In this document: positions 14,213 to 54,237 of the stretch, one piece after another
Numbering within the stretch: position 1 is the stretch's first letter
Layout of the letters: every line of letters begins with the position of its first letter
Source: Candidatus Hydrothermarchaeales archaeon
GTDB lineage: Archaea; Hydrothermarchaeota; Hydrothermarchaeia; Hydrothermarchaeales; JAZGAD01
Reading direction: 5' to 3'
NCBI GenBank assembly: GCA_036444275.1
Contig: JAZGAD010000014.1
Span: forward strand, 8,131-72,130
DNA length: 64,000 bases
Notes under the pieces: model-generated
Database searches by the model: none
What the model saw: the letters and a program-made list of their open reading frames with translations, nothing else
Told to the model about the DNA's origin: nothing
Made by a program: the position numbers and the translations under genes

Positions 14213-14217
14213 GGTTC

Positions 14218-16912: not shown

Positions 16913-16953
16913 CGAGATATTTGGAGCAGTTCGGTAAGTTATAAATATGCACC

Positions 16954-17193
16954 ATGTGGGGGGCAAGAAGCATGCAATTATCCCGAGTCGATAAACGCAT
17001 CATAAGCGTTCTAGTAGAAAAGAAGCCCAAGTCCCGTTCTACCTATCAAATCGCCAAGAAGGCCGGGATTTCTTGGTCTACTGCTATAGCGCACTGCTAC
17101 AAGCTCAAGGCAGATGGAATAATCGATGGAGAGACAGAGAAACCGAAATTTGGAAGCAGAGACACAATAGTTTGGAGGAAGAAGAAGGAATAG
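16954..17193 (+). CDS. Small winged-helix-turn-helix DNA-binding protein
   Basis: RIISVLVEKKPKSRSTYQIAKKAGISWSTAIAHCYKLKADGIIDG follows the wHTH layout seen in MarR/ArsR/TrmB-like small regulators. The start could instead be ATG 16972. It ends 30 nt before the giant ORF. Confidence 0.6.
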   Translation: MWGARSMQLSRVDKRIISVLVEKKPKSRSTYQIAKKAGISWSTAIAHCYKLKADGIIDGETEKPKFGSRDTIVWRKKKE

Positions 17194-17222
17194 GAGACAT
17201 TTTTGGAATCTAACGTGGGAAC

Positions 17223-20200
17223 ATGAAGTTTAAACCTCCCAGTAGGATATTGGCAGCATGGATATTACCATTTATACTAGCTTTAGCTATCTTTAGTTCT
17301 TTATTACAACCTTCTAGTAGTATTACTATACTAAACCCTAATGCTCATCCAAAGCTAGGGGACAACTGGAGCATCCACTTTTCTACCACAGGCTCTGGTA
17401 TTCTGGAGATCTACGACCACTCCTTCCCAGAGGAAGTCGAGTTCATCGGCTTGTACGCCGAGATAGACGATGAGTACAAGAAGGTCCAGGTGAGCATCAA
17501 AGGAGACTTGATAACTGCTAACTGGCACTACTCCTCTGGTGAAGCGATCTTCAAGGTTCTAACACCTCAGGAGCATTCTCTCGAGTTCAGGTTTGGAGAG
17601 CAGGTGGTCTATGCATACAACTTCGCTGACCTGCTTATCAACCTGACTGCTCCGTCTCAAGTCGCCAGGGGGCAGGTTATTGAGATTGGCGGTGAGGCAA
17701 GGAATCACGACTTGGCAGATGTCTCCTTGATCTATGTCTTGCCACAGGGCTTCGAGGTTGTTTCAGGCGAGAAGGTGAAGCACTGTGGAACCGGTTATCT
17801 TTGCGAGAGCAGTTTGGTTGTGGATACCTCTAAGGCAAAGCTTGGAGAAGGCGTAATAAAGCTCCAGGGATGTGCCTACGGCGTATGTGAGAGCGAGAGC
17901 ATTAACATCTTTGTGGATCGGGTGCTGACTGAGAAGGGGGAGCCTGTGCAGGAAGAGGTAGAGGTAGGCAAGCCTGTGCGCTGGAGGCAGCACATCCAGG
18001 TTAGGAATCCCCTGCATGCTCCTGTTTTCAATTATTCTCTGCCCCTGCCAGAGGATGCGTCTGGTATTGCTGCGCCGGTTATTGAGGAAGTTAAGCCTGG
18101 ACAGAAACTAGGCTTCGACGTGATATTCTACACCGGGCCAGTGGAAGTAGAAGAAGAAGATCGTAACATTTCCCTGCGTTCTCTGATTCCAAAGAATGCC
18201 TTGAACATAAAGATAGATGGGAAGGTAGCTGACGCGGGCGCTCTAGATATTGAAATACCTGCTAAATTGGTTCGAGTGAAACATAATGCTTCGTTGCACT
18301 ACCGCGATATACCTGTAAGCATAGGCGTTTCAACGAAAGAGGTGACAGTATTCTATGATGCCAATGCCGGGGTGCTGGATGTTAACTCTGGTCAGCTAGA
18401 AGTTGTGGAGGGCGAGGTTTTGGGAGATCAGCTGACTTGGGTTGTGCCCAAGCTCTCTGAGAAGAGGTATTGGATAGCGCAGGTTCAAAGGACTCAAGGT
18501 AAGGCAGAAGTGAATAAGACTGTTGGTTGGACTCTGAAAGCCGGCGGTACAGTTGTCGAGTACGAGACGCCTGCGCCTGTTATGGAGGAGATACCGGTAG
18601 AGAATGGCACCCAGATGAGGGTTAAGAGCGATGTAAAGTACTCCAATGTAACTGCAACGGCTAGTGTTCCAGAGGGAAAGAATCGCACGTTACGCGTAAA
18701 TGGGAAAGGGGAGTTTAAGTTTGCAGATGTGCCGAGCTTTGAGGTTGAGGCTACTGAAACGGGCCATGCTCTCTATTGGCTCAATGGAAGTGTAGAGCTC
18801 TTCAACGAGAGCAGGGATGTAACTAGCGATTCCGCGCATTCAGTTAGCTTCTTTGACGCTAACGGCAATGGCGTAAATGACAGCGTAACTTGGAACATAC
18901 CCACCCTTTTGGAGCAAAATTACCTATTACAAGAGACAGCAAAGGTAGCGGAGATTCGAGCACGAGTCGAGGATGCCAAGGGCTATAGATTGCCGGTTGC
19001 TCCTGAGATCAGGCTTGTCGACGGGAAGTATAAAGTAACGATCCCGCAGGGCAGGGGGGTAAAGCCTGGGTTATACAAGCTCGTCGTTGAATCGGAGGCT
19101 GGTGTAGAGGAGCTGTGGTTTAAGTGGGGACTGATATCGATAAACACCAAGAAGAGTATGTATCATCCTGGCGAAGAAGCTGAGATACTAATGGTTGTAC
19201 TGGACAAGGAGGGCCATCTCGTCTCTAACGCGGACGTCTCTTTTGTAGTTACTAATCCGATTGGTGTGCCTACGTTCTTCACGACGGACGATGGTTCGAT
19301 CGTTGAAACTCAAAGGGGAATATACGAAGCAAGCTATCTAACTTTTCTGGAAAGCAATTATTCGCTCTTTGCCACTGCTAGTGCAGATGGGGTGGCAAGC
19401 ACTATCAATTCATATTTCACAGTCAAGGAGTACTACGAGTTCGATATCCTAAGGGATACACCAGTGACCATTGATCCTCAAAGAGGACCCTTTGATTCCT
19501 CTATAAAGGTGGTTTCATATACCGATGCATCTACTTTCACCCTGAGGGAATACTTACCGGCAGAATTTTCGATAGTTGATGCGGGCGGAGCTAAAGTTAC
19601 TGTCGTCAACGACACGAAAGTATTGGAATGGAGCGATATTACCAATGGTTCAAAGGTTAGCTACAAGTTCAACACTCCTTACATCTGGCCTTACCTCTAC
19701 ATGATGGGACCGGCGGAAGTGGAGTATGCTTCTGGCACGTTTATAGAGGCAAGGCCGTGGATGCTGGCGGTTGATCCCTCAACTTGTGAAGGTAATACGT
19801 GCTATGAATGGTTTGAGGATACGCCGGGATATAGTGCTTCTGATGGTAGTACAGAAACTTATGAATGGACACCTCAGTCGTGTCCTGGGACATTAAACTG
19901 TTATATCCAAAATATCACGGTTAAGTTTAGGTTTACGAATCCATTTTCAGCGATCCGAACTGGGTTCGAAATCTATTTTAGCAACATGTCTGGGGGAACA
20001 ACGTATTATTACCCAGCATATCATGGGGCACTAAGTGCAGGAGGCCAAGTTGGTCCACAGTGGGCGTGTAACTATACTGACAGTGCACAACCCTCAGGGT
20101 ATTTAAATAACACCTGCAACTTAGCGCCGAGTGACGGATTTAACAAAACTACCCATAATGTAACTCTTGTTGCGCCGGGTAAAACCTTAACAGATGTATT

Positions 20201-23200
20201 AAACATAAAATACAAATGGGTCTGGACTCCAGCAATGCCACAATTGAGCGATGTAACCGTCACGCCTTCTTCCGCTGGTTGGGGAGCCCTCCGGAACTTC
20301 TCAGCATTTTACACAGACCCACAAGGCGACGCAGGCAACGTGACATTGTTCGCGAAGACCTCAACTAGCGGCTCCTTCACCTCCAAAAATCTGACAGCCA
20401 TCACAAACGGTACGACCGCGTCGATATTTTACCGTTTTGACATCACCGACTTCGAAGCGCTCGGCGTCGGGTGGGAGTACAGGCTTAACGCATCTGACAA
20501 TAATACTCCACCAAACTCCTACCTGACCAGTTCCTACACATTCACTGTCACCAAGGATGCCACCACCTTCCAGAACACAGAAGGCGACGGTGCCGTAATC
20601 AACCGCAGTGACTCTCTTCCAAACAATACTGTCCCTCTCTGGTCTTACATCTACGATATGGAAAATGAGAGTCTCGCACGTGCTAATTCCGCCGCAGGAA
20701 AAATAGAGGGGAGAATATGGATTAACAAGAACGCCAGCGCCGGATACGTGGGCACGGATGCCCACAGCGCAGAGACCGACAGTGATGGTAAATTCAAGGG
20801 CACCACAGAACTCTTCAACGCAAGCGGTTATTTCAACCCTGGCTGCACTTACACCACGGGTCAGCACGTCTGGTACGCTGAGACGCTGGCCCACACAAAC
20901 TACACCCAGAACGACACCCTAGCCATCAACAGCGGCAACAACTACACGCTTTACATCTGGGGGACCCTGAGCAACTCCATAACATCGCCAGATCCACCCG
21001 GCAAAGAATATACGGTAGGCGAAAACGTGCCTCTCTACGGCACAGTCTATGATGATTGCAGTGTCCTCGTAACAGATGCAAATGTTACCTTCCGCGTGTA
21101 CAATGCTACCCTTGGAGTAGATGATAACCTAACTGCGAGCTACAACCCTCCCCAGAACCGCTACGAAGCTTCCTGGAATTCCACGGGAAATAGTACTGGC
21201 ATCTACCAGGTGGAGATGATATCTAACAAGAGTTACCACCCCGTGGACACCGCCCAGACGAACTTCACACTCGTGGAGCTGATAACACTGAACTGGACCG
21301 TGGTTCAGGGAAATGGCTCGATCAGCAACAGAACAGGTGAAGAGATTAACACCCTGGTAGTGAGGATAACCGATGACGCCACAAATCCGGTAACGAATGA
21401 GAACGCAACCCTCTGGATCACCTACGATGGGACCAACTCTATACAGAAAATCACCAACGAATCAAACAGCTCCGGATATCTCGTATATGATTTTAATGCG
21501 ACCTGCGACCTCGATGTGGGTGAGCAGGAATGGAAATTGGTTATGCAGGACACAACCGAGTTCCAAAATCCGAACTCTTGGGATGATGGAAATGAGTATT
21601 ACACGGATATATGGGGAACCACAACCCTTGATTTTGCTTATCCAATTGCCGGAATCTATGATATGGGTGGCCTGATAAGGCATGAAGGCTACGTCTACGA
21701 CGACTGTGGCAGCGAGCTTGACGGTGCGACGGTCAATTTCACCATTGTCGGGCCGTCAACCAGTCCATCTCCATATTACTGCGAAAACGTCGAGGCGCCT
21801 CTAGCAGGCTTATACAAATGTAACTCTACCGCGGGGGAAGGTTGGGACTCATCTGGAATGGACGAGGGATGGTACAACTCGACGATAAATGTATCCAAGA
21901 GTTACCACTACAACAACAGCGTGATAAAGACCAATGGAACCCAGTCTCTCTTCAACCTCCGGCTTACACCACCTGACCTGTTCGACGCGGATGTCCAACC
22001 CAGAAAAGACGGCTGGGGCAAAAACTACACCTTCGCGGTTAACATCACCTATGCGGCTGGAAAAAACGTTAGCGTACTCCTGTACTATCAGCCCCAGTTG
22101 ATGGAAGAAGAGCTTCTTGCATCCACCGGAAACTTTACCCTACCCTCATATACATATGCTGTCAACTTCACCGATCAGACCTTTAACTCGACTCTGGTTG
22201 ATAAGACTGTCAAATTCAGGTATGAGATTAAATACTATCCACCCGGTCTGGGTGAACAGAGCGTCTGGACGACAATAACCGAGACGGGAGACTACAACCA
22301 GTCTAATACTACGGGTGTGGATGACAACGAGTTCTATTTGGAGAAGGATGATGTTCTCCTGAATTATTCTGCTGGGAATGAGTCCACCGCAAGCCTCCAG
22401 GTAGAAGCGACTTTTGTACTCCGCATCTGGGATATAACTCGGGGTGTCTGGATTAACGCGACCTCTACTTCTGTGAAGTTCAACGTAACTAAGAACTGGC
22501 CGAGTTCTGAAAATGTGACGGTGAATACTACGACGACGAATGCGACTGGCTATGCTTTTACGGATTTCTTGCCTGACACGAGCTACAGCTCGGGATTGCA
22601 GAAATGGTTCGGATATATCCCGGATACTGATCCCTATTACAAATTCAATGTCTCTGATATCTTTGATGTTAATCTTTCTATTCATCCACCGCAGCTCGTC
22701 AATGCCTCGGTGGATAAGACGACGGCTGGTTGGGGTGTGAATCGCACCTTCAGTGTAGAGGTAACTGATACTGTGGACAACGCCACCGTAAGCCTCTGGA
22801 AGACTGATACAAGTGGATTCGTAGCAGATACAAACTGGACTTTCATAGCTGCGAAGAATTATACGGATGTCGGCAACTGGACGCAGCTTAACTTCACCAC
22901 TAGCTTTTCACCGTCGGATATTGGGGGCTGGTATTACAAGTTCAACGCGAGCGACATCGCTGGAAACACCAATTATACTAGCGAGTCTTCCTATACTTTC
23001 ACCGTCGACAAGGACGATGTTATCTTGGAGTACGTCCAGGGAGATGATTCCCCAGCGAATAGGTCTGACAATCAAATCGACCGCTTGATCGTAAAGGTGA
23101 AGGATGAGAATGGCTCGTACATCGGTAATCTTAGTGTGACTTTCAAGGTGACCTTTGATGGCTCTATCTATGATACGGGTACGGCGAACAATACGAATAC

Positions 23201-26200
23201 CTCCGGCTACGCGATCTACAACTTCAATCCCGGATGCAGTAGTCCAAAGTACGGGGTGGGTGTGCAGAACTGGACCGCGGTGAGCTCGGAAACGAATGCC
23301 TATAAGTCCAATTCATCTTCTATTTACAACCTCACAATATGGGGTGATAACGTCATCACTTTCGATAGGCCTGCCCCGTATCCGACTGGCTATTACGCTG
23401 TAGGTGATAGGGTGCCCTTCCGGGTCCTCATTAAGGATGAATGCGGCGATGAATTAGGGAAAAATGAAGACTCGGATAAGGAGGTGAAGTTTTATGCTAT
23501 AGGCCCGGATACTTCGCCGCAGACATATGACTGTGGAACTGTCTCCTCTAGTCTTACCGGTCTCTATGAATGTGAGAGCGCTGCTGGCGGTTGGAACACT
23601 ACAGGAAAGTCTGCGGGAGACTATAATGCTACTGCGGACGTATCTCTCGCTTATTACTACATCAACAACTCGATAAACAATAGGATCGTACCGGAACGTG
23701 ATAACCTCACTCTGGCATCTGGTTCCGGTTGGTTCAGGCTTTATGTTCCATCTCAGCCCCCTGATCTCACCGCTGCGGACGTTAACCCTAGGAAGGACGG
23801 TTGGGGCAAAAATCGAACCTTCTCGGTGAATGTGACAAGCCCCAAGAGCGGGAAGAACATAACTGTGGTTCTCGAGGTGAAGAAGAGCGGAGAAGATTAT
23901 GCTCAGATCGGCGATGCCCAAAACTGGACTTCAGGCGGTACCGGTAGTTCTAAGATCCTTGAATGGAATGTCTCCTTTTATCCGGCGAATGTCTCTGTCT
24001 TACCCTACAAATTCAAGTTCACTGCGACCGATGAGGATTTGGAAGAAGATGTGACCAACATCCCGGCCGAGTATACGAATACTACACCCCTTGAAGGCAT
24101 AGACGAGAACGAATTCAAAATCGAGAAGGACGATGTTCTCCTGAATTACACCGCTGGAAACGGGTCCCTCGTAAATCTTCAGGTAGAAGCGACTTTTGTG
24201 CTCCGTATTTGGGATATAACTCGGGGTGTCTGGGTCAACACGACCTCTGCCTCTGTGAAGTTCAATGTGACCAAGAACTGGCCGAGTTCTGAAAATGTGA
24301 CGGTGAATACCACGGCGACGAATGCGACTGGGCATGCTTTTACGGATTTCCTGCCTGACACGAGCTATAGCTCGGGATTGCAGAAATGGTTCGGATATAT
24401 CTCGGATACTGATCCCTATTACAAATTCAATGTCTCTGATATCTTTGATGTTAATCTTTCTATTCATCCACCGCAGCTCGTCAATGCCTCGGTGGATAAA
24501 GAGACGGCTGGTTGGGGTGTGAATCGCACCTTTAGTATAGAGGTGAGAGATACAGTGGATAACGCCACATTGAGCCTCTGGAGGTCAAGCCAGATTGTTG
24601 GCCAACCTTGGTATCTCATAGCTGAGAAGAATTATACTGATGTGGGAAATTGGGTTCAACTGAACTTCACCACCAGCTTTTCACCGTCCCTTATAGATAC
24701 GTGGTATTACAAGTTCAACGCGAGCGACATCGCAGGAAACACCAACAGCACGGATGTTGTATCCACGCGTAACTTCACTATCGATAAGGACGACGTCATC
24801 TTGGAGTATGTTCAGGGAGATGATTCTACAGCGAATAGGTCTGGCAATCAAATCGATCCCTTGATTGTGAAGGTGCGGGATGAGAATGGCTCTTATGTCG
24901 GTAATCTTAGTGTGACTTTCAAGGTGACTTATGATGGCTCTAACTACGATAGTGGTACGCCGAAGGATACAAATGGCTCTGGATATGCGATCTACAACTT
25001 TGACCCTGTTTGCACTCCAACAAAGTATCAGGTGGGTGTGCAGAACTGGACAGCGGAAGTCTTAGAGACGAATGCCTACAAGTCGAACTCGTCTTCTATC
25101 TACAATCTCACTGTGAGGGCTGAGTTCAACAACACCATTACTAAGCCGCCGGGAAATGAGAACTATACTTTGGGTGATACCCTTACCTTCCAAGCAGTTA
25201 TCAGGGATGACTGCAACGATAACCTTGACGGGGTAACAGCCAACTTCTATGCCTCCAATGCCACCGTTGAGTATGACTGCGGCAATGTAACACTCATCCT
25301 CTCGGGAACGGGTATATACGAATGTACGTGGGCATCTGGTTTAGCAGAGGAGGGATGGTACAATGTAACATTGAACACTACCTTGGGCAACTACCACTAC
25401 TACAGCGATACCACGAAGTACGATCAACCCGGTCTCTTCTACCTGTTGTTTAAGGAACAACCCCCTGATCTAAACTCGGCTAATGTTACTCCTAGGAAGG
25501 ATGGCTGGAGTCTCAACAGGACTTTCACGGTCAACGTAACAAGCCCCAAGAACGGGAAGAACGTCACCGTATGGCTAGAGTTGAAGAAGGGCGGAGGCTC
25601 CTACAACCCCGAGGGTGACGAGCAGAACTGGACTTCAGGCGGTCCCGGTAGTTTCAGCATCCTCGAATGGAACATTTCCTTCTCCTCAACTGATGTTGAC
25701 CTCTGGTTCTTCAAATTCCAGGCTAAGGATGCGGATGGGGTGACGGATACTACCTCTTTGACCGAGTCTGGCGATTATGTCAATGATACTAACGAGTTCA
25801 ACGTCGAGAAGGACGATGTGAATATATCCTACATCTATGGAAACGAAACCGAGATCGCGACCTTATCCAACCCGTCTACCTTCATACTTAAGATTTGCGA
25901 CGAGGACGCAAACACATGCAACCTGACACCCAGTGCGAAGGTCAAGTTCAACGTGACCAAAGATGGTATTGGAACCGATTACTACGCCGCACGTGGTACG
26001 GATGGGAACGATTATAACTACACCAACGGCACTGGACATGTGGTCTTCGAGTTCCTTCCAGATACTAGCTGGAATTCGACTAAGCAGAGCTGGATCGGCT
26101 ATGTTGTTGATGACTACTACAACTTCACCACGTCAGGCACCTACAATGTCACAGTGGATTTGAATAAGAATCCGGACATCCTAAACGAGACCGTGAACGG

Positions 26201-29200
26201 TGTAACAGAGGATGCTAAACAGGGATGGGGATTCGTCTTCAACTTCTCGGTCATGGTCAAGGACGACAAGAACACCAATACAACCGTCGAGCTGTGGGTG
26301 GATACTGCCAACACCACTGGTAGTACATACAAGAAGGTGAACGAGACCCTATGCGAGAGCTGTGGCTCTGATTGGAAAGAGATCAATCTCACCGTCAGGT
26401 TCAACAGCAGTGACATCGGTCCTGCATCCTACTACTTCAAGGCCATCGATAATACCTCGAACCCGAACCAGACTACCTCCCACGCCTTCACCATAGAAGA
26501 AGACGAGGTAACATTCGAGGTAAGCCCAGGTAGCAATGGGACGAATGTTATAGTCAACAGGAGCGCTGCCCAGGGGAACCTCCGATTGGCCGTCAGATTA
26601 AGGGATGAGAACACCAGCTACGTCGGCGCCAACGCTTCTACAACGCTCTACGTAACCACCTCCGGCTCTACCTTTGATTCCGGACGCGACATAGACACGA
26701 ACGCCTCTGGATATGTAAACTATGATTTCCTGCCCACATGCAGCAACCCAGAATACGAAGTCGGACTGCACAACTGGTACGTCAAGGTAAAGGATAGTGA
26801 TTCCCTTTATCAGCCCAATCAATCAGAGTACTACGTCTTCAGAGTGATAGGTACTCTCAGCAACACCATAACCGAGCCCTTGGGCAGCCCCACCTACAAC
26901 CAGTGGCAGACGATACTTCTCGAAGGCAATGTGTATAACTACTGCGGAGAGGGCATAGAGATCAACAACACTTTGGCAGGCGAGAACCTCACCTTCACCC
27001 TCATCAACGGCACAAACAACTATACGTGCACAGACATCGTTAAAAGCGGTGTCAATACCTACAAGTGCTACTGGGCTCCCTTCGCTTCCAATGCCATCCG
27101 CGGATGGTACAACCTGAACATGTTCTCCAACAAGTCAGGTTACTACGCCAACGAGACGACTCGGCTCAACTCTTTCTACCTGCAGACACCGCCAAAGCTA
27201 GAGGATGCAAAGGTAGACCCAACGGATGAGGGCTGGGGCTACACCTTCAACTTCTCGGTTAATGTAACTGATAACATCGACGACAACGTAACAGTAACGT
27301 TCTACGACAAGCGATCAGGGGATGAATCTTGGACCCTAGTAAGTGAGCAGAACTGGACAGCGGATGGAACTACAGGAAGGCTGTACTGGAACAAGAGCTA
27401 TGCCTCCACATATGCCGGCGAAACAATGTATTTCAAATTCGACGCAGACGATACAGAGGGCTTCGACGACACCATAGGAGGCGTGGGTGAATCTTGGGAG
27501 TTCAAACTCAGAAAGGATGATGTCGAGCTATTGTACATTCAGGGCAACGAGAGTGTGGTGGACCGCTTAGGTGCCCAGACAACTAGGTTCATACTGTATG
27601 CGAATGACACTGATCGCGCTGCACAGGCATATCCTCCGGCTGCTACGGTCTACTTCAACGTAACAAAGGATTGGGAAAACTATACCGCTGCCACCAATCT
27701 AACCGGGCAAAACTACAACTACACTAATGCCTCTGGCTACGTAACCCTCGACTTCAATGCGACCTGCGAGCAAAACGTGGGCAAGCAGAAGTGGATAGGC
27801 TATATCCTCAACGACGACGCCTACAAGGACAATGTTTCAGCTGAATTCAACGTCACTGTAGTCGGCGACTTAATCAACAACATCACCCAACCGGATGGAG
27901 AAGAATACAACCAGACGGATCCCGTGCCGCTAAGGGGTAGGGTTACTGACGAGTGCGGCAATTCCATCCTCGGAATAAACGACACGGTCACCTTCACTGT
28001 GTCCAACGGCACCGCGAACTATCTCTGCACCCCCGTGGAGGACCAGGGCAATGGCTACTACAACTGCACCTTCGACACAAACCTCAGCATGGCCCCGGGC
28101 TGGTACAACATCACCATGAACTCATCGGCCGGAGATAACTACAACAACGCCACTCTTACCAAGCAGGCCTTCAGGCTCACCCCCGGGAACGTAGAACCCT
28201 ACCTGAGCGATGCCCAAGTAACCCCTGCCAGCGAGGGATGGGGGATCACCAGGAACTTCAGCGTGGAGGTTATGGACCTTAACAGTGACGACGTCAACGT
28301 TATATTGTTCCTTTCGCCGGACGGCACAAACTGGGTTGAAATAGGAAACGACACGTGCCCGGGCTGCAGCAACTGGCAGACGCTGACCTTCCCCTACAGC
28401 TTCTCGAGGGAAAACTACTCCACCAACAACACTTGGCAGTTCAGGTTCAACGCAAGCGACGGGAATGTAACCGTAACCCTGTCGAACACAACGGGCGCGA
28501 TCCTTGAGAGGGACAACGTGAGCGTAGTCCTCGATCAGGGAGACGGGGCGATAGTGAACAGGTCGGGAGATCAAACGGTAAGCCCAATCCTGAGACTCCA
28601 GGTGGTGGACAACGACAACTCCAGCATCACTGTGGCCGCCGATGTGACCGGGCGGTTCTACGTAACAGTGGACAATTCCAGCTGGGGCTCCGCCATCAAC
28701 AAAAACACCACTACAGGAGGGAACCTGAGCCTCGACTTCAACCCGAACTGTACCTCTCCAAAGTACTATACCGGCGTCCAGCAGTGGAGGGGGGAGACGA
28801 ATGGAGATTTCTACTACGACGACAACTCCTCCATCAATTATACTTTGTATATATACGGGGAGCTCATCGCCACCATCGACCAGCCCAACGGGACACAGAC
28901 CTACGCCCCGGGGCAGAACGTGACGATGGAGTTCAACGTGGTAGACGAATGCGGCGACAACGTTACGGGCATGACTCCCCAAAACTTCACCGTTAACCTG
29001 ACCCACAGCAACTACAGTGACCTCTGTACAAACATCCAAGTAGTAGGGAACGGCTCGTACAACTGCACATGGAACTCCAGTGGTGCCGTCGGCGGGAACT
29101 ACACCATCGCTATCGACCTAGGGAAGGACTACTACAACTCCAACTCAACTACGAGGCAGGACGCCTTCTCCATCAACGTTGCCCCTACTCTGGAGAACGT

Positions 29201-44200: not shown

Positions 44201-47200
44201 CATGTGGGATCCTGACTTATTGGCGCAACAGGATACCGGGGAGGACCTCCTCATCAATGCTACAGCCTACAAGGACTACTACGACACGAATTCCGGCTAC
44301 CTTTTTATAAATATAACCGGCACAGCCAACGTCTCCTGGGTCTCGCCAACACAGGGACAACAATATCCAAATCCCTTCAACCTTACCTGCAACGTCACAG
44401 ACAGTGTCTCAGGAGCAATCATCTCTGGATACAATGTTTCCTTCTGGTACAAATATCCAAATGAAAACTTCACCTACAATGGTACCATACCCACAGATTC
44501 CGAAGGAAATGCCACCTATATATGGACGCCTCCAAAACCAGGGGAACCCTATATGACCTTTATGTGCAATATAAGCGACTACACCGAGGAGAACTACAAG
44601 GCCTCCGACGACAAGAACTCCTCCTCCATGAACATTCCGGTAACAGATATGACGCCGCCCTTCTTCGACACCTTCCTAGTCACGCCCAACGAGAGCATAG
44701 AGGCATGGGAGACGATAAACATAACGGTGAATGTTACAGACGACAAGGGGATAAATGTAGTCTATGTCCAGATCGGGGAATACAATGGCACCCTTCAGAA
44801 CTACACAATGAATAACCTCACACCAGTTGAGCCAGACGAGCCAGCTATATACTTCTACAACTATACGCCCGAGTGGGGCGGAGACTACAACGCCACGATA
44901 TACGCCGAGGACACGTCTGCGAGGAACAACGGCAACTGGTCGCATACTGAGTACTTCACTATATGGGGCAAGGCAGATGGAGTTACAGATAATACACCTC
45001 CACCTCCATCCCAAGTGGCACTCTATAACATATACTACGACCGCGGGCAGACCTTCAATTTGACCATAAACTTCACAAACAATGGTGATGGCACAGCATA
45101 TGCTGTCAACCTCACGATCTACGATAACCAGCCTACTTTAGTCATCAACTATACACCTAACTATAAGTATCCTAACTATATGCAGCTGTATGACGTAAAT
45201 GCAGGCGTTACGAACCTAACGGAGGTTAATGTCACGATACCAGCTGCAACTACAGCAAGAACTATTTATATCTATGGAAACGTGACCTGGAGAAATCCTG
45301 ATAAGACAATTAACTCGAGCATAGCGCAGACAGTCGTGCTGGTATATGAGAACCCGGTGCTAAACGTTACCGACGACTCCTATCAGCCAGAGTTGCAACT
45401 GGAAGACGTCCGCCATGGAGATAAGAAGGAGGGCACAGTAATAGTGCAGTCCATCGGGAACGCGAACATCAGGAATATCAACATATCAAGGGACGATGGA
45501 GCGCTGGACAACCTCGGTACCGATTGTCCGTACTGCAATGTAACCTTCAACGACGATACTGTATACAGCATCCCCAGCCTACCCTTAGGCGTAACCTCTA
45601 CGGTTACAGTAGTCGTGGATGTGCCTTTCGGTCAGGCTCCAATGTCGTACACAAGCCACATAAAAACAATATCAGAGAATGCAGCGGCAAAGACCATTCT
45701 TATGAATGTTACTGTGGCAGGGAATGCAACGTGGTATGCTGAAACGTCGTATGCCGACCCCAGTACACTCGGCAATATAACCGCCTTCCACCCCAATCAA
45801 AGCGGGTACACCAAAGGCACTATGGGCAAGATCACTCTTACAAATATAGGCAACGTGAGGATATCCTATGCGATTACAGTCCCGCATAAAAACACCGAGA
45901 TGAATGGAACCACGATAGAGGTTAATGGCCAGTATCCACCGGATCCAGTCTCGATCCCTGAGCCCTACCTACAGCCTGCTGGAACGAAGCGTACGCTGGA
46001 GATAAACTACACCATCCCAACTACTGCCGATAGAGGGCTGTACTGCAAGAATATAATGATAGATGTAACTAAGGCAGAGCCCGTAAAGGTTGAAGACGCG
46101 AAGCCGTTTTCACTCAATATTCCCTTCTGCCTTGAGGTAACTGACCCGAAGTACAACTGGAGCCATTCCAAGACAAACATCTCCATGGAGGTCATACAGG
46201 GCACAGACGGCTTCCTCGGCACCTTGAACATAACCAACCTCGGGAATGTCGAATTTTACTTGGAGGTGAACAAATCCGTCGAGATCATAGCTGTCTCCAA
46301 TCTCACCCTAGGCCTAGGTGTTAACAAGACCCAAGAGGTATCCTTGAACTACTCAGCTCCAGTAACTCATGAGCTAAAGAACTATACGTATTACTTCAAG
46401 ACCGTGAATGCATCAGGAGAGCCAACTGAGAGGATAACGTACATCAACCTAACGGTCCAGCCCTACTTCATAAACATAACCCAACCCACAAAAGACGCTC
46501 AGAAGAAGGGCGTGTTCGGTGGCGATGAGATTCTTATCAGGGTGAACGTGACCTATAATGGTACAGCGGTAAACGACACGGGCGATATGAACTGGATTGT
46601 AACGCTGTTCAACAGCACCTACTCGAAGGACTATACTCCATCTGCTCCGCTTGATGAAGTTTACGACAATGTAACTGAGCAATTCAACCTCACCATACTT
46701 GTCCCCAATATAGCCCAGAGGGCCTATGATTTGAAGGTAACAGCCACTTACTCACCAAAGAACCTTGTGCTCGCTGATGTCGAGAATGATGCCATAGTCT
46801 ATAATGATACTATCGACCCAGTGCTTAACCTGGTGGTGCCAGGAGAGGTAACCGTGGGACAGTCCGTGGAAATCCTCCTGAACGTGACAGACGCTGGATC
46901 GATAAATGAGTCGACGGTAAGCGCGAACATAACGGATCCCAATCAAATCACCTTCGATCTGAACATGAGCTCTATCGACAAACAGGGCGATACTTACCGG
47001 TACAACAACGTATCCATCCCAACCCTGGAGGGCACCTACACCATAGATGTCACGGCCTGCGACGTAAGCGGACGTTGCGCGTCCAACAGCACGTCCTTCA
47101 ACGCCTACATAAAGGTAGACATCAATGGCACTGCTAAGGATTCAACTAGTCAACTCGCGGAGGTCAGCTTCAAATTCTATGACAACGGCACCACTAATCT

Positions 47201-50200
47201 CGCCCCGAATGGTAGCTTCAGCAATAACGTGACTGAAGGATACTCCCGCACCTTCTACGCAAGGTTCTATGACCTTGAGATAAGTGCGTTTGGCCATGTC
47301 ATAAAATTCGAGAACCTGAATGTGAGTGACCACTTGAACGATCCAATACGCCTCGACGAGTTCAAGGAGGGCGATATCTCAGAGAACAACTTGAATCTAC
47401 CTCTCGGAAGAAGGCTTCTGAAAGGCATTGGGGTTAAGACCAACTTTACGAATCTGACTACGGAGAAGGTGACTTTGATCCTCAACTACTCCGGTACAGT
47501 GCCAAATGATGAGGACTCGATAAAGATATACAGGTGCCCTGGCTCAAGCTGGACCTTCGAGCCAGATAGCGCGAGGGGATGCACAAACTGGGAGGAACTC
47601 GGAGGTACCCCATACAAGCCGGCGCAGACCATACAATTTGAGGTTGAAAACTTCTCAGCCTACGCTATCACCGAGGAAAAGCCAACAGTGCCTCAGATAA
47701 CTCTTACCGCTCCAACGGGCGGCGAGACATGGGCCGACAATCAGAGCATTACCTATACCTACTATGATCCAAACGGCAACAACCTGGATGTCTACATATG
47801 GTATAGCAACGACTCCGGTGCGACATGGAACTATATATATAATAAGACTTACACCGACACTGGTACTCAGAAGACAGGTTCCTATTCTTGGGATACTACA
47901 AGCAGACCAGATGGAAGCTACCTGATCAACATCACCGTCACAGATACAGATGGAATGACGAATGAAGACATCTCTGGAGCTTCCTTCACCATAGACAATA
48001 TCGACGATGATCCACCTACGGTAACCCTCACAAAGGAGCCCTCGGATTCGACGTGTTCCCAAGACCTATTCTTTGAGGGAAAGGCAATCGATGCGAGATC
48101 AAACATCAGCGCAGTAGAATACCGGGTGGACGGCGGCAGTTGGATAAACGCTACTCCAATAGATGGTGCCTTCGATTCCCTAGAAGAAGAGTTCAACTTC
48201 ACCACAGGTACCCTATCCTTCGAGAGCCATGCCATCGAGATCAGGGCTAACGACAGTTCTGGCACATCTGGGTATTCAACACCCCTCTACAAACCCAAAG
48301 AGGTTACGAGGGCCTGCCAGGAGATAAAAATACCCTCCGGCGGAGGTGGCGGTGGAGGTGGCGGTGGAGGCATCTCCCCCACCTGCGGTAACGGCATTTG
48401 CCAGCCAGGTGAGAACAGTGAGAACTGCCCACTGGACTGCGCACCCACAAACGCGACGAACGCATCAGTGATCATGCAGAGGGAGATAGAGCGCCTACGT
48501 GAACAGCTCGAAGAGATCAGGCAGACGATAAGTGATACCGCGAATGAAACCGCTGAGAGGGTAAGGACGATGCCTACGATTTCTCCCTTCACGATACAGA
48601 CGAATCTCGCTGAGGTAGAGCTTCATCCAGGAGAAGAGAAGTGGTATTCCATCTGGATAAGCAACCACTTGAGCAGGGACCAGAAGGCAAGGCTCTCAGC
48701 CATGGGCGTTGGAGCGCAGTTCATCGAGATGTACGTAGATAGTGTCAAACTCTTCACCGAGGCGACTGTCACCCTAAAGCCGGAGAGCACGCAGCACATA
48801 AAGGTCAGGGTCTATTCCCTGCCGACAACGATACCAAGCATATACACTGCCGATATCCTTCTGAGGGTAAACGGCCAGAACCATACCATACCTGTGACCA
48901 TAACTATAACGCCTGAGAGAGAAGCCCTGCTCGATGTCAAGGTAGAGGCGCTGACCAAGAGGCTCACTCCAGGGAAGCTCATCAAATATCACGTCTCGCT
49001 TTACAATCTCGGCTTCAAGAAGAAGTTCGATGTGCACATGGTATACAAGATAAAGGACGTCGAAACAGAGAAACTCATCGACTGGTACGAAGAGGAGCTA
49101 GCCCTAGAGACGACGCTCTCCTTCGTGAAAACATATCCAATGGAGAACCTCACCCTCTCAATCGGCAGTTACTTCATTGAGATAGAGGCGATATACGAGA
49201 AAAATAGGACCGCTTCTGCAGCTGATATATTCGAGATAGTGCAGCCGTTCTGGAATAGAACGAGGAGGCTGGGTGTTCTAGCTCTCATCCTGCTCATTAC
49301 TGCCAGCGCAGCTGGATATAGAGCTAGAAAATGGTACTTAGCCCAGAAACTCGCGAAGGCCAGATACCTGTTCCCAGTCGCGGAGGATAAGCTCCCCAAG
49401 GGCGAGCTCTGGCTCGGCAAGATAGCTGAGACAGACATCAAGGCAACCTTCGATATGGACGACCTCATGGTGCACTGTATCACTGCTGGTGCAACCGGCT
49501 CTGGAAAGAGCGTCTCGGCCATGGTAATAGTTGAGGAGGTATTGAAGCAGAATATACCGGTAATAGTCTTCGATCCAACCGCGCAGTGGACAGGCTTCGT
49601 TAGGCCGTGTAGAGCAGAAAAGATGCTTGCTTTCTATCCCAACTTTGGGTTGAAGGAGACTGACGCTAGGCCCTTCAAGGGTATGATCTTCGAAGTGACT
49701 GATCCCTTCGAGATGGCTGATATAGACTACCGCAAGTACATGAATCCAGGCGAGGTAACAATATTCGCCTTGGACAAGCTCGAGCCGCAGGAGTTCGACA
49801 AGGCGGTAAAGAACATCATTGACGCGCTTTTCAAGATATCCTGGGAGGAGTCGCCTCACCTCAAGGTCCTTATAGTGATGGACGAGGTCCATAGGCTGCT
49901 TGAGAAATACCTGTCGATGGGCGGCATAGTCTCGGAACTGGAGGGCTATAAGTCCATCGAAAAGGCATGCAGAGAGTTCAGGAAGTGGGGTATAGGAATA
50001 ATCATGGCCTCCCAGATATTGTCTGATTTCAAGGAGACACTTAGAGGAAACGTCATGACTGAGATACAGCTCTTTACAAAGGCAGAGGAGGACCGGCAGA
50101 GGGTAGCTGACAAGTACGGCGCAGAGTACGCCCAGAGGATAACCAAACAGGAGGTGGGCGTTGCACTCGTGCAGAATCCGAAGTACAACGATGGTAAGCC

Positions 50201-50459: not shown

Positions 50460-50471
50460 TTAAAGAAACAG

Positions 50472-52136
50472 GTGCGTGCTATGGCTGACGAAGAGAGGGA
50501 CCCGACATTACAGGAGATCTTACTCAAGCTTGAGAAGATAGATGGAAAGCTGGAGATAGTGGATAGATTCAGAGAAACCACTGACGAGAGATCCTCCAGG
50601 CTGTCTGAGCAGATAGGCGAACTGCGCACCATGCTCCTGGAGAGGGAGCGGACCTCGCGGAACATGGAGATGGACTTCGAGAAGATAAAAGTCCTGGTGA
50701 AAGAACTAGATCCAATGGCCCTTGTAAAGGAGTCAGAAAAGAAAGAGAAGAAGATCATCGAGAACAAGGTCAAGGTAGAGAAACTTGAGAACATGATCGC
50801 AAAGCTCGGTGAGGAGGTCGGAGCTTTCAGAGATGTGATGGAGAAGATAAAGAGCTTTGAGAACCTCGTGGAGATGGCCAAGGATGTGAAGAAGAAGATC
50901 TCAGATATAGAGGACAGTAAGAGATACACAGATAGGCTTGCTGGGAAGGTGGAGAGCATCTTCTCAGAGCTGAACGAGAAGATCCTAGAGCTGGAGGAGT
51001 ACAAGGGGAAGATAACGAAGGCAGACGAGCTGACCAAGGAGCTTGTGAAATCGACGGACAGGCTCGAATTAAAGCTCGGCGACGTAGCAGAAAGGACAGA
51101 TAGGCTTCCCACAGTTGTTGAATTCGAGGACAAGATCGAGGGTCTCGCTGCCTCGATGCGTTTCCTGACAAAGAAGATCAGAATGCAGGAGCTGGATGAG
51201 GTAAGCAGCGACCTGGGCAGAAGGATGAAGGAACTCAGCACAGGGATGCCTGAGCTGGAGAGGGTGAGGGAGCTTGCAGGGGAGAGGAGGAGAATCATGG
51301 AGCTCATGATGAGTGTTGATGAGGACTACAAAAAAGAATTAATTTCCAAGGAGAGCTACGAAGAGGTGAAGCGGAAGAACGAGGAGATGCTCAAAGGCAT
51401 CAAAGAGTCTATAAAGACAGATCTGGGCCACCTGGTGAGCTCTCTAGAAGTGGAAGTCGAGCAGGAACTGGAGAAGTTTGCTGAGACTATGCCCACCGAG
51501 GAAGAATTGGAGGCAGAGATAGAGGTGCCTGAGCCTCTGATTCCAGCTCCAGAGGAATTCAAAGCAGAAGCACCTGCGTTTGAGGCACCGCCACTAGAAA
51601 TAGGGGCAGAAAAAGGAGAATTTGAGAAAGCCTTTGAGAGGCAGGCAGAGGCTTTCCCAGAATTTAAACCGATTCCGCCGCCCGCTGGAGTAGAGCCCGA
51701 ACCGAAAGTAGTTAAGCCAGAGCTTAAGGTGGAGCCTAGGGTGGAGCCTGTGAAGCCGAGGATAGAACCAAAAGTAGAGCCTAGGATAGAGCCGAAGGTA
51801 GAAGCGAGAGTAGTTAAACCAGAGCCTCCGACGCCTGTGAAAGTACCGGTTGCCGCAGAGCAAGCGGTAAAGCCAGAAGCAGTAACTGTTAAGGCAGAAG
51901 CACCTACCCCAAAACCATCGTTGGCGCTTGAAAAATTAGATGCCGCTTCTATCGAGAATAAATTGAATGTAATAGAGACCGAGAGGGGGGTGGTTCAGAA
52001 CCTCCTTGATGGTCTTTCCGCTGAATTGGATTATAGAAAACGAGAGCAAATGGAAAAGAGATATGGGGATAGGCTAGAGAAGATATCTCAGACTCAAGCT
52101 GAGTTAAAGAAGCTGAAAGAGAGGGCAGCGCCCTGA
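50472..52136 (+). CDS. Long coiled-coil protein (554 aa) with P/E/K/V-rich repeat region
   Basis: Starts 13 nt (GTG 50472) or 22 nt (ATG 50481) after the giant ORF stop. It has heptad-like E/K/L composition throughout and no TM helix. Repeat block EPKVVKPELKVEPRVEPVKPRIEPKVEPRIEPKVEARVVKPEPP at nt ~51700-51830. Confidence 0.75.
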   Translation: MRAMADEERDPTLQEILLKLEKIDGKLEIVDRFRETTDERSSRLSEQIGELRTMLLERERTSRNMEMDFEKIKVLVKELDPMALVKESEKKEKKIIENKVKVEKLENMIAKLGEEVGAFRDVMEKIKSFENLVEMAKDVKKKISDIEDSKRYTDRLAGKVESIFSELNEKILELEEYKGKITKADELTKELVKSTDRLELKLGDVAERTDRLPTVVEFEDKIEGLAASMRFLTKKIRMQELDEVSSDLGRRMKELSTGMPELERVRELAGERRRIMELMMSVDEDYKKELISKESYEEVKRKNEEMLKGIKESIKTDLGHLVSSLEVEVEQELEKFAETMPTEEELEAEIEVPEPLIPAPEEFKAEAPAFEAPPLEIGAEKGEFEKAFERQAEAFPEFKPIPPPAGVEPEPKVVKPELKVEPRVEPVKPRIEPKVEPRIEPKVEARVVKPEPPTPVKVPVAAEQAVKPEAVTVKAEAPTPKPSLALEKLDAASIENKLNVIETERGVVQNLLDGLSAELDYRKREQMEKRYGDRLEKISQTQAELKKLKERAAP

Positions 52137-52137
52137 T

Positions 52138-54204
52138 GTGATTAAAATGGTTCGACTAAAGGAAAAGATCAGATCTGTCATCCGCCGCAAGGAAAAGGAC
52201 TATGGGGAACCATATATCGAGGAGGACTACGGCCTTCCACCCGGATTCGAGGATGATGTAGGGATCGAGGAGTCGGAAGGCGAATATGTGCTCTTAAAGA
52301 TCTTTGAAAGAGAGAGCCCTGATATTGGATTCTCATACGCTGCAAACAAGATCGAGGAGTTAAAAAAGGATATATCCGCTCTTAAGGCAGAAGCGGATTC
52401 ACTATCAGGGGTAAACGCCACGCTGAGGGTGGATCTGGAGAGGCTTCTCCCCCTAAAGGGGGCGCTGGACGAGCTGAGAAAAGACATAGAAGAGAAGGAC
52501 GATGTAATCTTTGCGAAGAACCTAGACATAAAGAAAGTGAATAAAGCCCTCGATCGCATGCAGGTAGAAGTAAGCGAACTAAGGAGGGAGTTGAAAGATA
52601 GGGAGCGGTTGCTGGAGAGGGGTAATAAACGGCTGAAGCAGATGGAGGATACGACTCGGCTGGATGAGTTGGAGGCAGAGCTCAGCGAGCTCAGGGTGAC
52701 TGTTACGGAGCAGAAGGATACCCTCGCTATAAAGAGTTCTCAGGCAGAGGAATTCAAGCAGATGGCAGCTGCCCAAGATGAGGAGCTGAACACCATAAAG
52801 GCTACTTGGTGGCAGCAGGGCAAGGAATTAAAGAAGATGAAGATAGAGCTGGAGGAGAAGACGGGCATCCTATCCTCGAAGGAGGGCTTGATAGAGGAGT
52901 TGACAAAGAAAACTACGTCCCTCAACGAGGTATTGGAGAGTATGCGGCAAGATGTGGCTGATAGAGAAAAGAGGCTCTCTACGTTTGGGGACCACATATC
53001 CGATGCAGAGAACCAGCAGAAGAGGCTGGAGAAAGAGCTTCGAGAAAAGGAGGAGGTTATAGGTAAAATCACTAACAATTTAGGCAGAGCTGAGTCTCGG
53101 GTAGATGATTTGAGGAGCCAGCTAGAGGAGAGGGATTTGCAGCTGCAAGGGACTACGAAGAGGGTCAGAGAGCTTGAGGATACGGATAGATTCGAGGATT
53201 TAGAGGCCGAGCTTAGCAAGTTGAAGGTGACTGTTGAGGGGCAGAAGGATACCCTATCTTTAAAGACTTCGGAGGTTGAAGACTTGAAGCAGGCTGCAGC
53301 TGCCCAGGAGGACGAGCTGAGCACCATAAAGGCTACTTGGTGGCAGCAGGGCAAGGAATCAAAGAAGATGAAGATAGAGCTGGAGGAAAAGACGAGTATC
53401 CTCTCTTCAAAGGAGGCATTGGTAGAAGAGTTGAAGAAGAAATCTGCGTCCCTCAGCGAGCTCTTGGAGAGTATGAAGAGGGATGTAACTAACAAAGAGG
53501 ACAGGGTAGAGGAATACGAGGATAGGATCGGCCGTCTACACGGTAAAATAGGCGCCTTAAGGTCAGCTATAGGTATCGAAGAAGGGCAAAGAAAGAGCTT
53601 GAGTAAGAGATTATTTGGTGGTAAGAAGGAACTCACATTGGAGGACGAGTTAGACCTCCTGACAGAGGATATAACCGTAAATCAGGGCAGGGTCGTCGGC
53701 TATGACAAGAAGGTATCAGACTTAGAGATCCAGGTAGAGAGACAGAAAAAAGCCTTGGAGGAAAAGGAGGGGACCATCTCTGCAAAGACCAGCGAGATAG
53801 AAAAACTCTTGGATGTTTCCTCCTCCCTGAAGCAGGAATTAAGAGAATTAAGGGAGAAGACACCTGTGGAAGGTACCAAAGAGGTAGACGCGAAGGAGGC
53901 GGCCTCCCTAAGGCTAGCAAAATTGAAAAGAACAGTTGAGGGCGGACCCGAGGAAATAATCGAGGAAAAACCTGTAATGGGGGAAAGGGAAAGACTAGAG
54001 GAAGCTGAAAAGGAAGCGGAGAAGTTAAAGATCAAAAAAGAATTAAGAATGCTGGAAATTGAGAAGAAATCGACCGAAAAATTATTGGAGAGGCTTCCAA
54101 CTGCTAGTTTTGATGAAACAGAACGCAGTATGAGGGAAGCGAGCTATACGGAGAAGCTGACGAATATATCCCGCAGTATCGAGGAATTGAGAGAAAGGCT
54201 GTGA
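52138..54204 (+). CDS. Long coiled-coil protein (688 aa) with internal ~106-aa duplication
   Basis: Starts 2 nt after the previous stop (GTG 52138; alternative ATG 52147). Segments 52657-52975 and 53188-53506 are paralogous, with a ~70-nt almost identical core encoding TIKATWWQQGKE.KKMKIELEEKT. Confidence 0.75.
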   Translation: MIKMVRLKEKIRSVIRRKEKDYGEPYIEEDYGLPPGFEDDVGIEESEGEYVLLKIFERESPDIGFSYAANKIEELKKDISALKAEADSLSGVNATLRVDLERLLPLKGALDELRKDIEEKDDVIFAKNLDIKKVNKALDRMQVEVSELRRELKDRERLLERGNKRLKQMEDTTRLDELEAELSELRVTVTEQKDTLAIKSSQAEEFKQMAAAQDEELNTIKATWWQQGKELKKMKIELEEKTGILSSKEGLIEELTKKTTSLNEVLESMRQDVADREKRLSTFGDHISDAENQQKRLEKELREKEEVIGKITNNLGRAESRVDDLRSQLEERDLQLQGTTKRVRELEDTDRFEDLEAELSKLKVTVEGQKDTLSLKTSEVEDLKQAAAAQEDELSTIKATWWQQGKESKKMKIELEEKTSILSSKEALVEELKKKSASLSELLESMKRDVTNKEDRVEEYEDRIGRLHGKIGALRSAIGIEEGQRKSLSKRLFGGKKELTLEDELDLLTEDITVNQGRVVGYDKKVSDLEIQVERQKKALEEKEGTISAKTSEIEKLLDVSSSLKQELRELREKTPVEGTKEVDAKEAASLRLAKLKRTVEGGPEEIIEEKPVMGERERLEEAEKEAEKLKIKKELRMLEIEKKSTEKLLERLPTASFDETERSMREASYTEKLTNISRSIEELRERL

Positions 54205-54231: not shown

Positions 54232-54237
54232 TTTTTT
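54232..54237 (+). terminator. Oligo-T tract after the giant-gene operon
   Basis: ggcaCTTTTTTagg, 28 nt after the 54204 stop. Confidence 0.3.

Follow-up and report, generated by a model that had tools for sequence, protein, structure and literature searches.

A giant SPEARE-type protein and a conserved coiled-coil partner in a putative envelope-spanning locus of an archaeon that is probably not a DPANN symbiont

Results

A candidate four-gene unit built around an 11,078-residue membrane protein

The subject of this study is a 64-kb stretch of archaeal DNA (hereafter the window, 64,000 nucleotides (nt) in all, from whose first letter positions are counted) in which four plus-strand genes follow one another closely. 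They encode a putative regulator of the winged helix-turn-helix type (wHTH; 73 amino acids, 16972..17193), a giant type-I membrane protein of 11,078 residues (17223..50459), and two long coiled-coil proteins, here called CC1 (551 residues, 50481..52136) and CC2 (685 residues with an internal repeat, 52147..54204). All four genes are real in the window's list of open reading frames (ORFs) and lie on the same strand, as the original prediction had it. The reading frame of the giant is intact and figures as one gene in the public record, and ATG 50481 and ATG 52147 are the annotated starts of CC1 and CC2. The wHTH gene, recognized through sub-threshold Pfam matches (HTH_24 and HTH_11), had been started at 16954 to give 79 residues; that version is not recorded, the public record having the 73-residue product that begins with ATG 16972. 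The intergenic distances had each been put one nucleotide too high: they are 29 nt between wHTH and the giant, 12 or 21 nt between the giant and CC1 (GTG or ATG start, respectively) and 1 or 10 nt between CC1 and CC2.

As the host is archaeal, promoter and terminator signals were judged from the numbers of T runs and of hexamers resembling a TATA box. The latter are frequent (23 per kb) solely in the AT-rich spacer at 16100-16971. The gaps contain none, and neither do the 260 nt that lead up to CC1 or the 250 nt that lead up to CC2; this count bears out the earlier impression that the gaps lack a TATA-like block. The spacer proper (16100..16953) comprises some 850 noncoding nt between a PIN gene and the wHTH gene, with a GC content of 34% (22% in 16141-16400); it yielded no Rfam match and no convincing ORF, and neither a tRNA nor any Rfam family was found elsewhere in the window. 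Its end holds a TATA-like box (gTTATAAATA, 16938..16947, plus strand) that reads as a candidate promoter of the unit. This TTATAAATA box stands about 25-34 nt ahead of ATG 16972, as fits a near-leaderless archaeal start, and is too near 16954. An oligo-T tract had been reported only after 54204. A T6 tract is indeed present there (54232..54237, plus strand), 28 nt past the CC2 stop, where it may terminate the unit; but a T5 tract (17200..17204, plus strand) also lies in the gap between wHTH and the giant, possibly as a partial archaeal terminator or attenuator, and four T5/T6 runs occur within the giant gene. Sense-strand runs of five or more T are scarce across the 37 kb (6, versus 32 runs of five or more A). 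Two elements resembling a Shine-Dalgarno (SD) sequence, AGGTG 7 nt ahead of the CC1 ATG and GTGAT 4 nt ahead of the CC2 start, fit internal cistrons. With the exception of the T5 after wHTH, the sequence has the marks of an operon, namely a single strand, short gaps, conserved order and no internal promoter or terminator signal. We suggest that wHTH, giant, CC1 and CC2 would be read on one transcript, from the TATA box near 16940 to the T6 at 54232, and that the T5 possibly damps read-through after the wHTH gene.

Domains and topology of the giant protein

The giant starts with a hydrophobic segment (residues 5-32, the signal peptide) and has, by hydropathy, a single transmembrane (TM) helix close to its C terminus (residues 10683-10701; 49269-49325, plus strand). 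Nearly all of its 655 N-x-S/T sequons (5.9% of positions) precede this helix, with a density of 28-42 per 500 residues in the super-repeat array described below, and the Walker A motif follows it, at residue 10756. These features show a predicted topology in which about 10,600 glycosylated residues of immunoglobulin-like (Ig-like) repeats would lie outside the cell and the ATPase inside, in line with the cytoplasmic location first assigned to the latter.

Much of the ectodomain is a super-repeat array, recognized by GWG motifs spaced 330-357 residues, or multiples thereof, apart. It extends from about residue 1,000 to 8,700 (20220..43322, plus strand) and comprises some 23 copies of a sequon-rich unit of about 335 residues, each equivalent to about three Ig-like domains. 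Two duplications inside the giant are visible in the DNA itself, one of 1,025 nt (22320-23335 versus 24102-25111, 83% identity) and one of 372 nt (31200-31570 versus 34281-34645, 85% identity), which suggests that the array is still expanding. The repeats are also a spot where short-read assembly could collapse or expand copies. A Pfam scan of the whole giant gave DUF87 and weak matches to MG2, Big_1, Big_7, PITM and ResIII, and nothing else; laminin-G and protease domains were not detected by it. An eleven-glycine run and a Cys-rich motif, ISPTCGNGICQPGENSENCPLDC, occur at 48339..48460 (residues 10373-10410), before a membrane-proximal module; they may represent a hinge that gives flexibility, followed by a small disulfide knot, and one related locus (L006) has a similar poly-Gly at the equivalent place. 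The module itself (residues 10391-10720, 330 in all; 48393..49382, plus strand) ends in the TM helix; tblastn detects it directly before the ATPase in almost every related locus (22-60% identity).

The cytoplasmic part of the giant (49383..50456, plus strand) is assigned by Pfam, AlphaFold2 and Foldseek to the P-loop ATPases of the HerA/FtsK superfamily and ends in a three-helix tail. Pfam DUF87 (PF01935) matches it above cut-off (E 7e-10). The Walker A motif reads GATGSGKS (49488-49511) and, in an alignment of 15 sequences from several phyla, Walker A (GxTGxGKS), the DE of Walker B and several Arg and Gln residues are invariant; judged by these motifs the enzyme should be catalytically intact. 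The AlphaFold2 model of the 419-residue tail segment (pLDDT 79.7, pTM 0.76) shows three C-terminal helices (segment residues 351-418, pLDDT about 90) in a region that is conserved in the same alignment. HerA of S. solfataricus (4d2i) is the top Foldseek match (E 9e-12), followed by SIR2-HerA, HerA-NurA, TcpA and FtsK, and PDB sequence profiles agree on HerA as nearest. Relatives of the ATPase number in the hundreds, with 46-62% identity across phyla, while their ectodomains diverge. A viral or mobile-element origin was rejected on the basis of an IMG/VR scan, which returned distant P-loop matches alone (21-31% identity).

CC1 accompanies the ATPase across archaeal lineages

A scan of one genome per species yielded 507 matches to the ATPase, none of them from the window itself (61% identity at best), and 80 loci were fetched with 10-kb flanks (individual loci are designated by L numbers). 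Almost always the ATPase forms the C terminus of a long ORF, from 2,000 to more than 3,750 residues, and most of these ORFs exceed the flank. In 72 of the 80 informative loci, which have enough downstream sequence and are phylogenetically related, a CC1 homologue lies on the same strand no more than 1.3 kb downstream of the last ATPase domain, often abutting or overlapping the stop of the ATPase ORF. At least eight lineages are represented, including Aenigm-, Woese-, Pace-, Nanohalo-, Undin- and Parvarchaeota, Altiarchaeota, Hydrothermarchaeum, and Methanosarcinales and Heimdall bins. CC1 is, then, a conserved partner of the giant ATPase, accompanying it almost wherever it occurs.

The similarity between residues ~13-250 of CC1 and the post-ATPase genes amounts to 25-55% identity, with E values down to 1e-54, and the family-defining N-terminal domain covers residues ~4-215 (50490-51125). 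An exhaustive search collected 892 representative clusters at E<=1e-10 and 611 at E<=1e-30; among its matches the domain is always N-terminal, in proteins of 230-1,122 residues. Gly46, Glu47, Arg49, Pro78 and Glu158 are invariant in the family, and these residues, together with the 611 clusters at the stricter threshold, argue for a specific family rather than a generic coiled coil. The AlphaFold2 model of CC1 is all-helical, its long helices kinked at the invariant Pro78. Behind the N-terminal domain come a SHOCT-like motif (see below), a Pro-rich linker and a C-terminal helical domain. Both coiled-coil proteins had been described as almost entirely heptad-like and free of TM helices. They do lack hydrophobic segments, are taken to be cytoplasmic and are rich in Glu, Lys and Leu, but in CC1 residues ~340-480 make up a Pro/Glu/Val/Lys-rich linker of about 140 residues. 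No Pfam family (in a search that took in 46 members as well), NCBIfam family or PDB family gave CC1 a name, the matches being of the generic coiled-coil type, and Foldseek with its AlphaFold2 model returned zero matches. Homology to chemoreceptors (methyl-accepting chemotaxis proteins, MCPs) was considered and rejected, as the matches of a PDB profile to their hairpins are weak (E 6e-5) and at the level of generic coiled coils. The family appears unnamed and undescribed in the searchable literature, the published SPEARE locus (see below) included.

Ten of 85 loci (L003, L017, L028, L034, L042, L045, L069, L075, L079, L084) carry, between the giant and CC1, a second, short ATPase paralogue made of the membrane-proximal module, the TM helix and the ATPase (about 550-700 residues; 1,393 in L045). 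With such paralogues, rings might be assembled from giant and short subunits together; none is encoded in the 64-kb window.

A second surface protein shares a SHOCT-like motif with CC1

Outside the coordinates of the original prediction, on the minus strand (8602..14130), the window encodes a second surface protein, of 1,842 residues. It has 102 sequons and, by Pfam, MG2 and NPCBM_assoc domains. In topology it shows a signal sequence, a TM helix near the C terminus (8857-8958) and, beyond that, 84 residues of cytoplasmic tail. Long N-terminal homologues (30-39% identity over 800-1,300 residues) stand beside CC1 in at least ten loci (L008, L009, L040, L059, L071, L072, L080, L081 and L083, and, following a wHTH gene, L078), as counted within 10-kb flanks that mostly stop short of the region upstream of the giant. 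All 11 complete homologues end, past the TM helix, in the motif L-x-x-L-x-E-Q-Y-x-E-G-x-I-S-+-E-T-Y-E-E-L-K, which we call SHOCT-like (8635-8733, minus strand, in the window protein). A profile made from ten foreign tails matches the tail of the window protein (E 3.8e-6) and 14 CC1 proteins, among them the window's own CC1 at residues 282-304 (51315-51383; E 1.2e-5), and it hit just 29 of the 698 ORFs of the loci. A stretch in the tail of the giant, KGIDTFDLDLELKL, looks similar on inspection, but with this tail profile it failed to attain E 0.01. We infer that the SHOCT-like motif is a docking or oligomerization motif common to CC1 and the second surface protein, and that the 1,842-residue protein is probably a further component of the system.

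Other small or surface proteins recur near the giant elsewhere. Several loci of the Aenigmatarchaeota type (L018, L023, L041, L043, L050) have, directly before it, a protein of 72-146 residues that combines a single TM helix with a short coiled coil (MYIFGIDVPILELLVIFS...EFEFRQLR...), and in L016, L048, L053, L054 and L068 it is preceded by an NPCBM_assoc surface protein of about 660 residues.

CC2 and wHTH are local additions

Only four homologues of CC2 were found in 5.8 billion proteins, and the protein is lineage-specific. Each homologue follows a CC1-like gene, at 48% identity in L086/L087 and 37% in L005; in L089 and L088 a small ORF intervenes. Library searches with CC2 gave matches to generic SMC/Rad50-type coiled coils alone. 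The expectation that giant, CC1 and CC2 co-occur as a trio in other genomes is borne out in the closest relatives, L086/L087, where a giant tail (ATPase 78% identical), CC1 (55%) and CC2 (48%) are separated by gaps of 15 and 10 nt, and more loosely in L089 and in Hydrothermarchaeum profundi (L005), where the membrane-proximal module occurs once more as a free copy between the giant and the CC1 and CC2 genes; but it does not hold beyond this lineage. In three of the five loci bearing CC2, chemotaxis genes (CheR; CheW, CheY, CheB, CheA, CheC/CheD) come directly after it (L005, 15726-16577; L086, with L087, 7440-12978; L089, 3470-6275). This proximity could reflect inherited synteny or a functional link; in the window no che gene lies beside CC2. 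A 130-residue ORF convergent with CC2 (54360..54752, minus strand) contains the tandem repeat RLDSDALDxLxxEIRQKLQxKREEFKTL twice, and is kept in the same place, at 48% identity, in L086/L087, with an ORF of about 62-65 residues behind it.

The wHTH protein has one true homologue, in the Heimdall bin L078 (50% identity), where it lies between CC1 and the second surface protein and precedes the latter, not the giant. A jackhmmer search of every small ORF in 88 loci gave a homologue in L078 alone. Small HTH_11-type genes abut the start of the giant in L014 and L020, the one in L014 overlapping it (34% identity to wHTH, E 3e-7). A small HTH gene would thus be a recurrent, not a general, companion of the giant, and wHTH as a general component was rejected, its occurrence being sporadic across the 88 loci. 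No DNA-binding domain was detectable in CC1 or CC2.

The giant belongs to a published family, in a probable non-DPANN host

Giants of this kind were named SPEARE proteins by Hamm et al. in 2019 (PMC6642349). They have been described as consisting of a signal peptide, about 75 Ig-like domains, a TM helix, a VirB4/TraG-like ATPase and a coiled-coil tip (PMC10266531), and an example of 12,127 residues (KA27) is on record (PMC8470020). Laminin-G- and protease-type domains have been argued not to be real SPEARE features (PMC10266531). The ATPase of the window giant shares 52% identity (E 5e-119) with the tail of the 8,880-residue giant of Ca. Nanohalovita BNXNv (BNXNv_0298) and 49% with the neighboring ATPase of the same locus; the CC1 homologue there is the 518-residue gene after the second ATPase (E 2e-28). 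The window giant has, likewise, a signal, an extracytoplasmic part of thousands of residues in one ORF, Ig-like or adhesion repeats, one C-terminal TM helix and, in the cytoplasm, a homologous P-loop ATPase followed by a helical tip, the parts standing in the same order. The 52% identity places it, by sequence, in the published SPEARE family, so that its kind is already known, a point overlooked when the locus was first described. It differs in several respects. Among the published SPEARE proteins surveyed, its 11,078 residues are exceeded only by the 12,127 of KA27; no tandem second ATPase gene is present, and the lineage adds CC2 and the wHTH gene; and its probable host is not a DPANN symbiont.

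The latter point comes from the gene content of the window, which includes two PurP, CofC, class II and class III ribonucleotide reductases (RNRs), HtrA, KaiC-like ATPases and a small GTPase with Roadblock/LC7. The PurP paralogues (358 and 364 residues) are in tandem at 59758..61941; the class II-type and class III (NrdD) RNRs are adjacent at 43..4244, both with an ATP-cone. The PurP, CofC and RNR genes argue against a reduced DPANN genome, and the nearest loci belong to Hydrothermarchaeaceae or lie beside che operons. The host is probably a non-DPANN archaeon related to Hydrothermarchaeota. The contig, recorded as JAZHCD010312760.1 of GCA_044240385.1, comes from a bulk metagenome, and each window protein looked up stands alone in its cluster at 90% identity. 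Another public contig encodes near-identical, though not identical, versions of some window proteins (MG2 protein, 1,842 versus 1,837 residues; Roadblock protein, 125 versus 119), indicating that two assemblies or strains of the organism exist. The occurrence of SPEARE giants outside DPANN appears unreported in the searchable literature, as do the CC1 family and its SHOCT-like link to the second surface protein.

Other genes around the second surface protein

The gene of the second surface protein sits in a minus-strand cluster (4877..15270) that resembles a signaling or polarity module. In addition to that gene the cluster comprises a two-TM PAS protein (14548..15270), a KaiC-like ATPase (7718..8539), a divergent KaiC/ArlH-like ATPase (6945..7655), a KaiC-N domain fused to a small Arf/Ras-like GTPase (5785..6948), a Roadblock/LC7 (MglB-like) protein (5421..5798) and a MetOD1-like protein (4877..5377), all on the minus strand. 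KaiC-like genes occur near the ATPase in two other loci only (L049, L051).

Discussion

The idea that the locus encodes a system of several components, as against an adhesin acting alone, stands as far as CC1 is concerned, which follows the ATPase in most loci; it does not extend to CC2 and wHTH, the one lineage-specific and the other sporadic. The small residual chance that the adjacency is incidental, with the giant a lone adhesin and the coiled-coil genes unrelated neighbors of generic low-complexity similarity, draws on the many spurious matches that coiled-coil proteins give and on the narrow conservation of CC2 and wHTH, but is very hard to reconcile with CC1 alignments of about 200 residues reaching E 1e-54, with invariant residues off the heptad pattern, with the same position in 72 of 80 loci, and with identities of 25-55%, which argue against a single recently transferred element.

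What kind of machine these proteins might form can be approached by comparison with better known systems. Complexes of the hexameric translocase HerA (HerA-NurA and, in defense, SIR2-HerA and DUF4297-HerA) represent the nearest family in fold and sequence and, like the window locus, have a dedicated partner gene adjoining that of the ATPase. The giant is not HerA proper: it has a TM helix and an ectodomain where HerA has an N-terminal HAS-barrel (in the model, a long TM/juxtamembrane helix precedes the core and there is no HAS-barrel), its partner is a coiled-coil protein and not a nuclease or NADase, no NurA is found in the window, and the NCBIfam HerA model scores 30 bits against a cut-off of 800. 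FtsK/SpoIIIE, the coupling proteins TraD/VirD4/TcpA and the Ced ATPase share with the giant a RecA-like ATPase of one superfamily, turned toward the cytoplasm and anchored in the membrane through an N-terminal helix; this likeness is the basis for supposing that the giant might translocate something. The giant scores far below the cut-offs of these families, however, and has one TM helix, against their two to five; its locus has no partner channel, relaxase or pilus genes. The archaellum motor (ArlI/ArlH with ArlX or ArlC/D/E) offers an analogy only, that of a hexameric membrane-associated ATPase amid a coiled-coil scaffold. KaiC/ArlH-like ATPases do lie nearby in the window (7718..8539, 6945..7655), but the ATPase superfamily is a different one and the likeness of CC1 to ArlX or ArlC is that of generic coiled coils. 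The giant repeat adhesins of bacteria (LapA, MpIBP, SiiE) and halomucin resemble the giant in being huge, repetitive, Ig-like and exposed on the surface. They rely on a separate type I system for export, or are secreted, and, unlike the giant, are not known to have a cytoplasmic motor domain.

The reading that we favor, and consider probable, is that the locus encodes a SPEARE-type envelope-spanning apparatus in which a hexameric ring, with CC1 as adaptor or stator, moves a polymer. Like HerA and FtsK, the ATPase would assemble into a hexamer, here at the membrane, and the ring would bundle several giant stalks into a fiber hundreds of nanometers long. CC1 would dock on the cytoplasmic face of the ring as an adaptor or stator and would also tie in the tail of the second surface protein through the SHOCT-like motif, while CC2 would extend the cytoplasmic scaffold in this lineage only. 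Where the fiber has bound a surface or another cell, the ring would most likely power the passage of a polymer, DNA or protein, across the membrane of its own cell. To our knowledge, every characterized membrane-anchored relative of the ATPase (FtsK/SpoIIIE, type IV coupling proteins, EssC, CedB) moves polymers, and it is for this reason that polymer movement is favored here.

Several observations weigh against this reading. There is no conserved polytopic channel protein among the recurrent neighbors, and one TM helix per subunit would give six helices per ring, from which a translocation channel is not evident. CC1 is lacking in 8 of the 80 loci, and the 72 of 80 that have it overstate the number of independent observations, since the loci are phylogenetically related. 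The attachment of a coiled-coil scaffold to the ATPase end, as first supposed, has no gene fusion in its favor: none joining CC1 with the ATPase turned up among 63 indexed matches or among the top 150 of about 1,000 exhaustive matches. As regards the SHOCT-like motif, Pfam SHOCT (PF09851, 28 residues) is the top match in 6 of 8 foreign tails but remains below cut-off (26.2 bits at best, versus 27), and the same model misses both window copies, in the tail of the 1,842-residue protein and in CC1. Finally, the T5 after wHTH could act as a full terminator; the giant would then depend on a promoter that is not visible in the sequence.

One could envision a narrower task for the ring, namely DNA uptake or exchange, in the manner of Ced or FtsK/SpoIIIE, with the fiber making contact and the ring pumping DNA. 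HerA and FtsK, the closest folds, are double-stranded DNA translocases, and a link to DNA handling has been suggested by Hamm et al. (PMC6642349). The best NCBIfam match of the giant is CedD, though far below cut-off: it amounts to 45 bits, versus 600, over 57 residues around the P-loop. Neither a CedA-like polytopic protein nor a pilin nor a nuclease is conserved nearby, and CC1 and CC2 are without a detectable DNA-binding domain. A dedicated DNA machine is, in our estimate, unlikely.

For the homologous nanohaloarchaeal giants, a "straw" akin to a type IV secretion system (T4SS) has been proposed (PMC10266531), in which the Ig-like fiber binds another cell and a VirB4/TraG-like ATPase drives effectors through it. 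Weak local matches of the ATPase to TrwB_AAD_bind, TraD and VirB4, and the presence of TcpA among the Foldseek matches, speak for a relationship of this kind. The best matches in fold and sequence are, however, to HerA and not VirB4; no CagE_TrbE_VirB domain is found by Pfam in the last 999 residues, and VirB4_plasma reaches 17 bits against a cut-off of 590. The window holds no second VirB4-like gene, and no T4SS component is present in the window or among the recurrent neighbors. Beta-sandwich domains strung in a chain do not make a conduit, and the probable host looks free-living (PurP and CofC; che genes in relatives), which adds to the difficulties and makes us think this mechanism improbable.

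A structural role would dispense with translocation altogether. The giant would be an adhesin or sheath fiber, the ATPase would serve the fiber (its assembly, spacing, tensioning, shedding or turnover), and CC1 and CC2 would anchor or position it on the cytoskeleton, possibly wired to motility or chemotaxis. The lack of a conserved channel component is what one would expect in this case. MinD/ParA-like ATPases follow CC1 in eight loci, CheR/che operons come directly after CC2 in L005, L086/L087 and L089, and the best PDB matches of the CC1 profile, weak as they are, are to chemoreceptor signaling hairpins (E 6e-5). Proteomics of Nanohaloarchaeum suggests, furthermore, that the ectodomain becomes separated from the TM and cytoplasmic part (PMC6642349). 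The similarity to MCPs is, however, at the level of generic coiled coils, and the DPANN carriers are without chemotaxis, as is the window without a che gene beside CC2. We also know of no HerA/FtsK-family member that acts in fiber upkeep, which counts against such a role. Taken with the evidence for it, this leaves a purely structural fiber a doubtful explanation, on a par with the secretion straw.

Returning to the apparatus with a polymer-moving ring, it is tempting to generalize from the window to the family, albeit with less confidence than attaches to the locus itself. The giant, the CC1 family and the SHOCT-tailed surface protein may together constitute an unrecognized, archaea-wide envelope-spanning machine, a HerA/FtsK-type ring that carries its own fiber and has CC1 as its hub; such a machine would predate DPANN symbiosis and not be specific to it. 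We offer this as a tentative proposal. SPEARE giants, the most conspicuous genes of several DPANN lineages, have been put forward as tools for attaching to, piercing or feeding on hosts. The presence of a full-size giant in an apparently free-living, motile, purine-synthesizing archaeon argues against a function confined to symbiosis. CC1, with its roughly 890 clusters, is a concrete candidate for the partner of the ATPase, and the SHOCT-like motif points to a way of linking several surface proteins to a single motor. The pair of genes for giant ATPase and CC1 is present in cultivated nanohaloarchaea as well, so that experiments are possible there. If the proposal is true, SPEARE proteins would be one subunit of a multi-protein apparatus, and not stand-alone "host-invasion" proteins.

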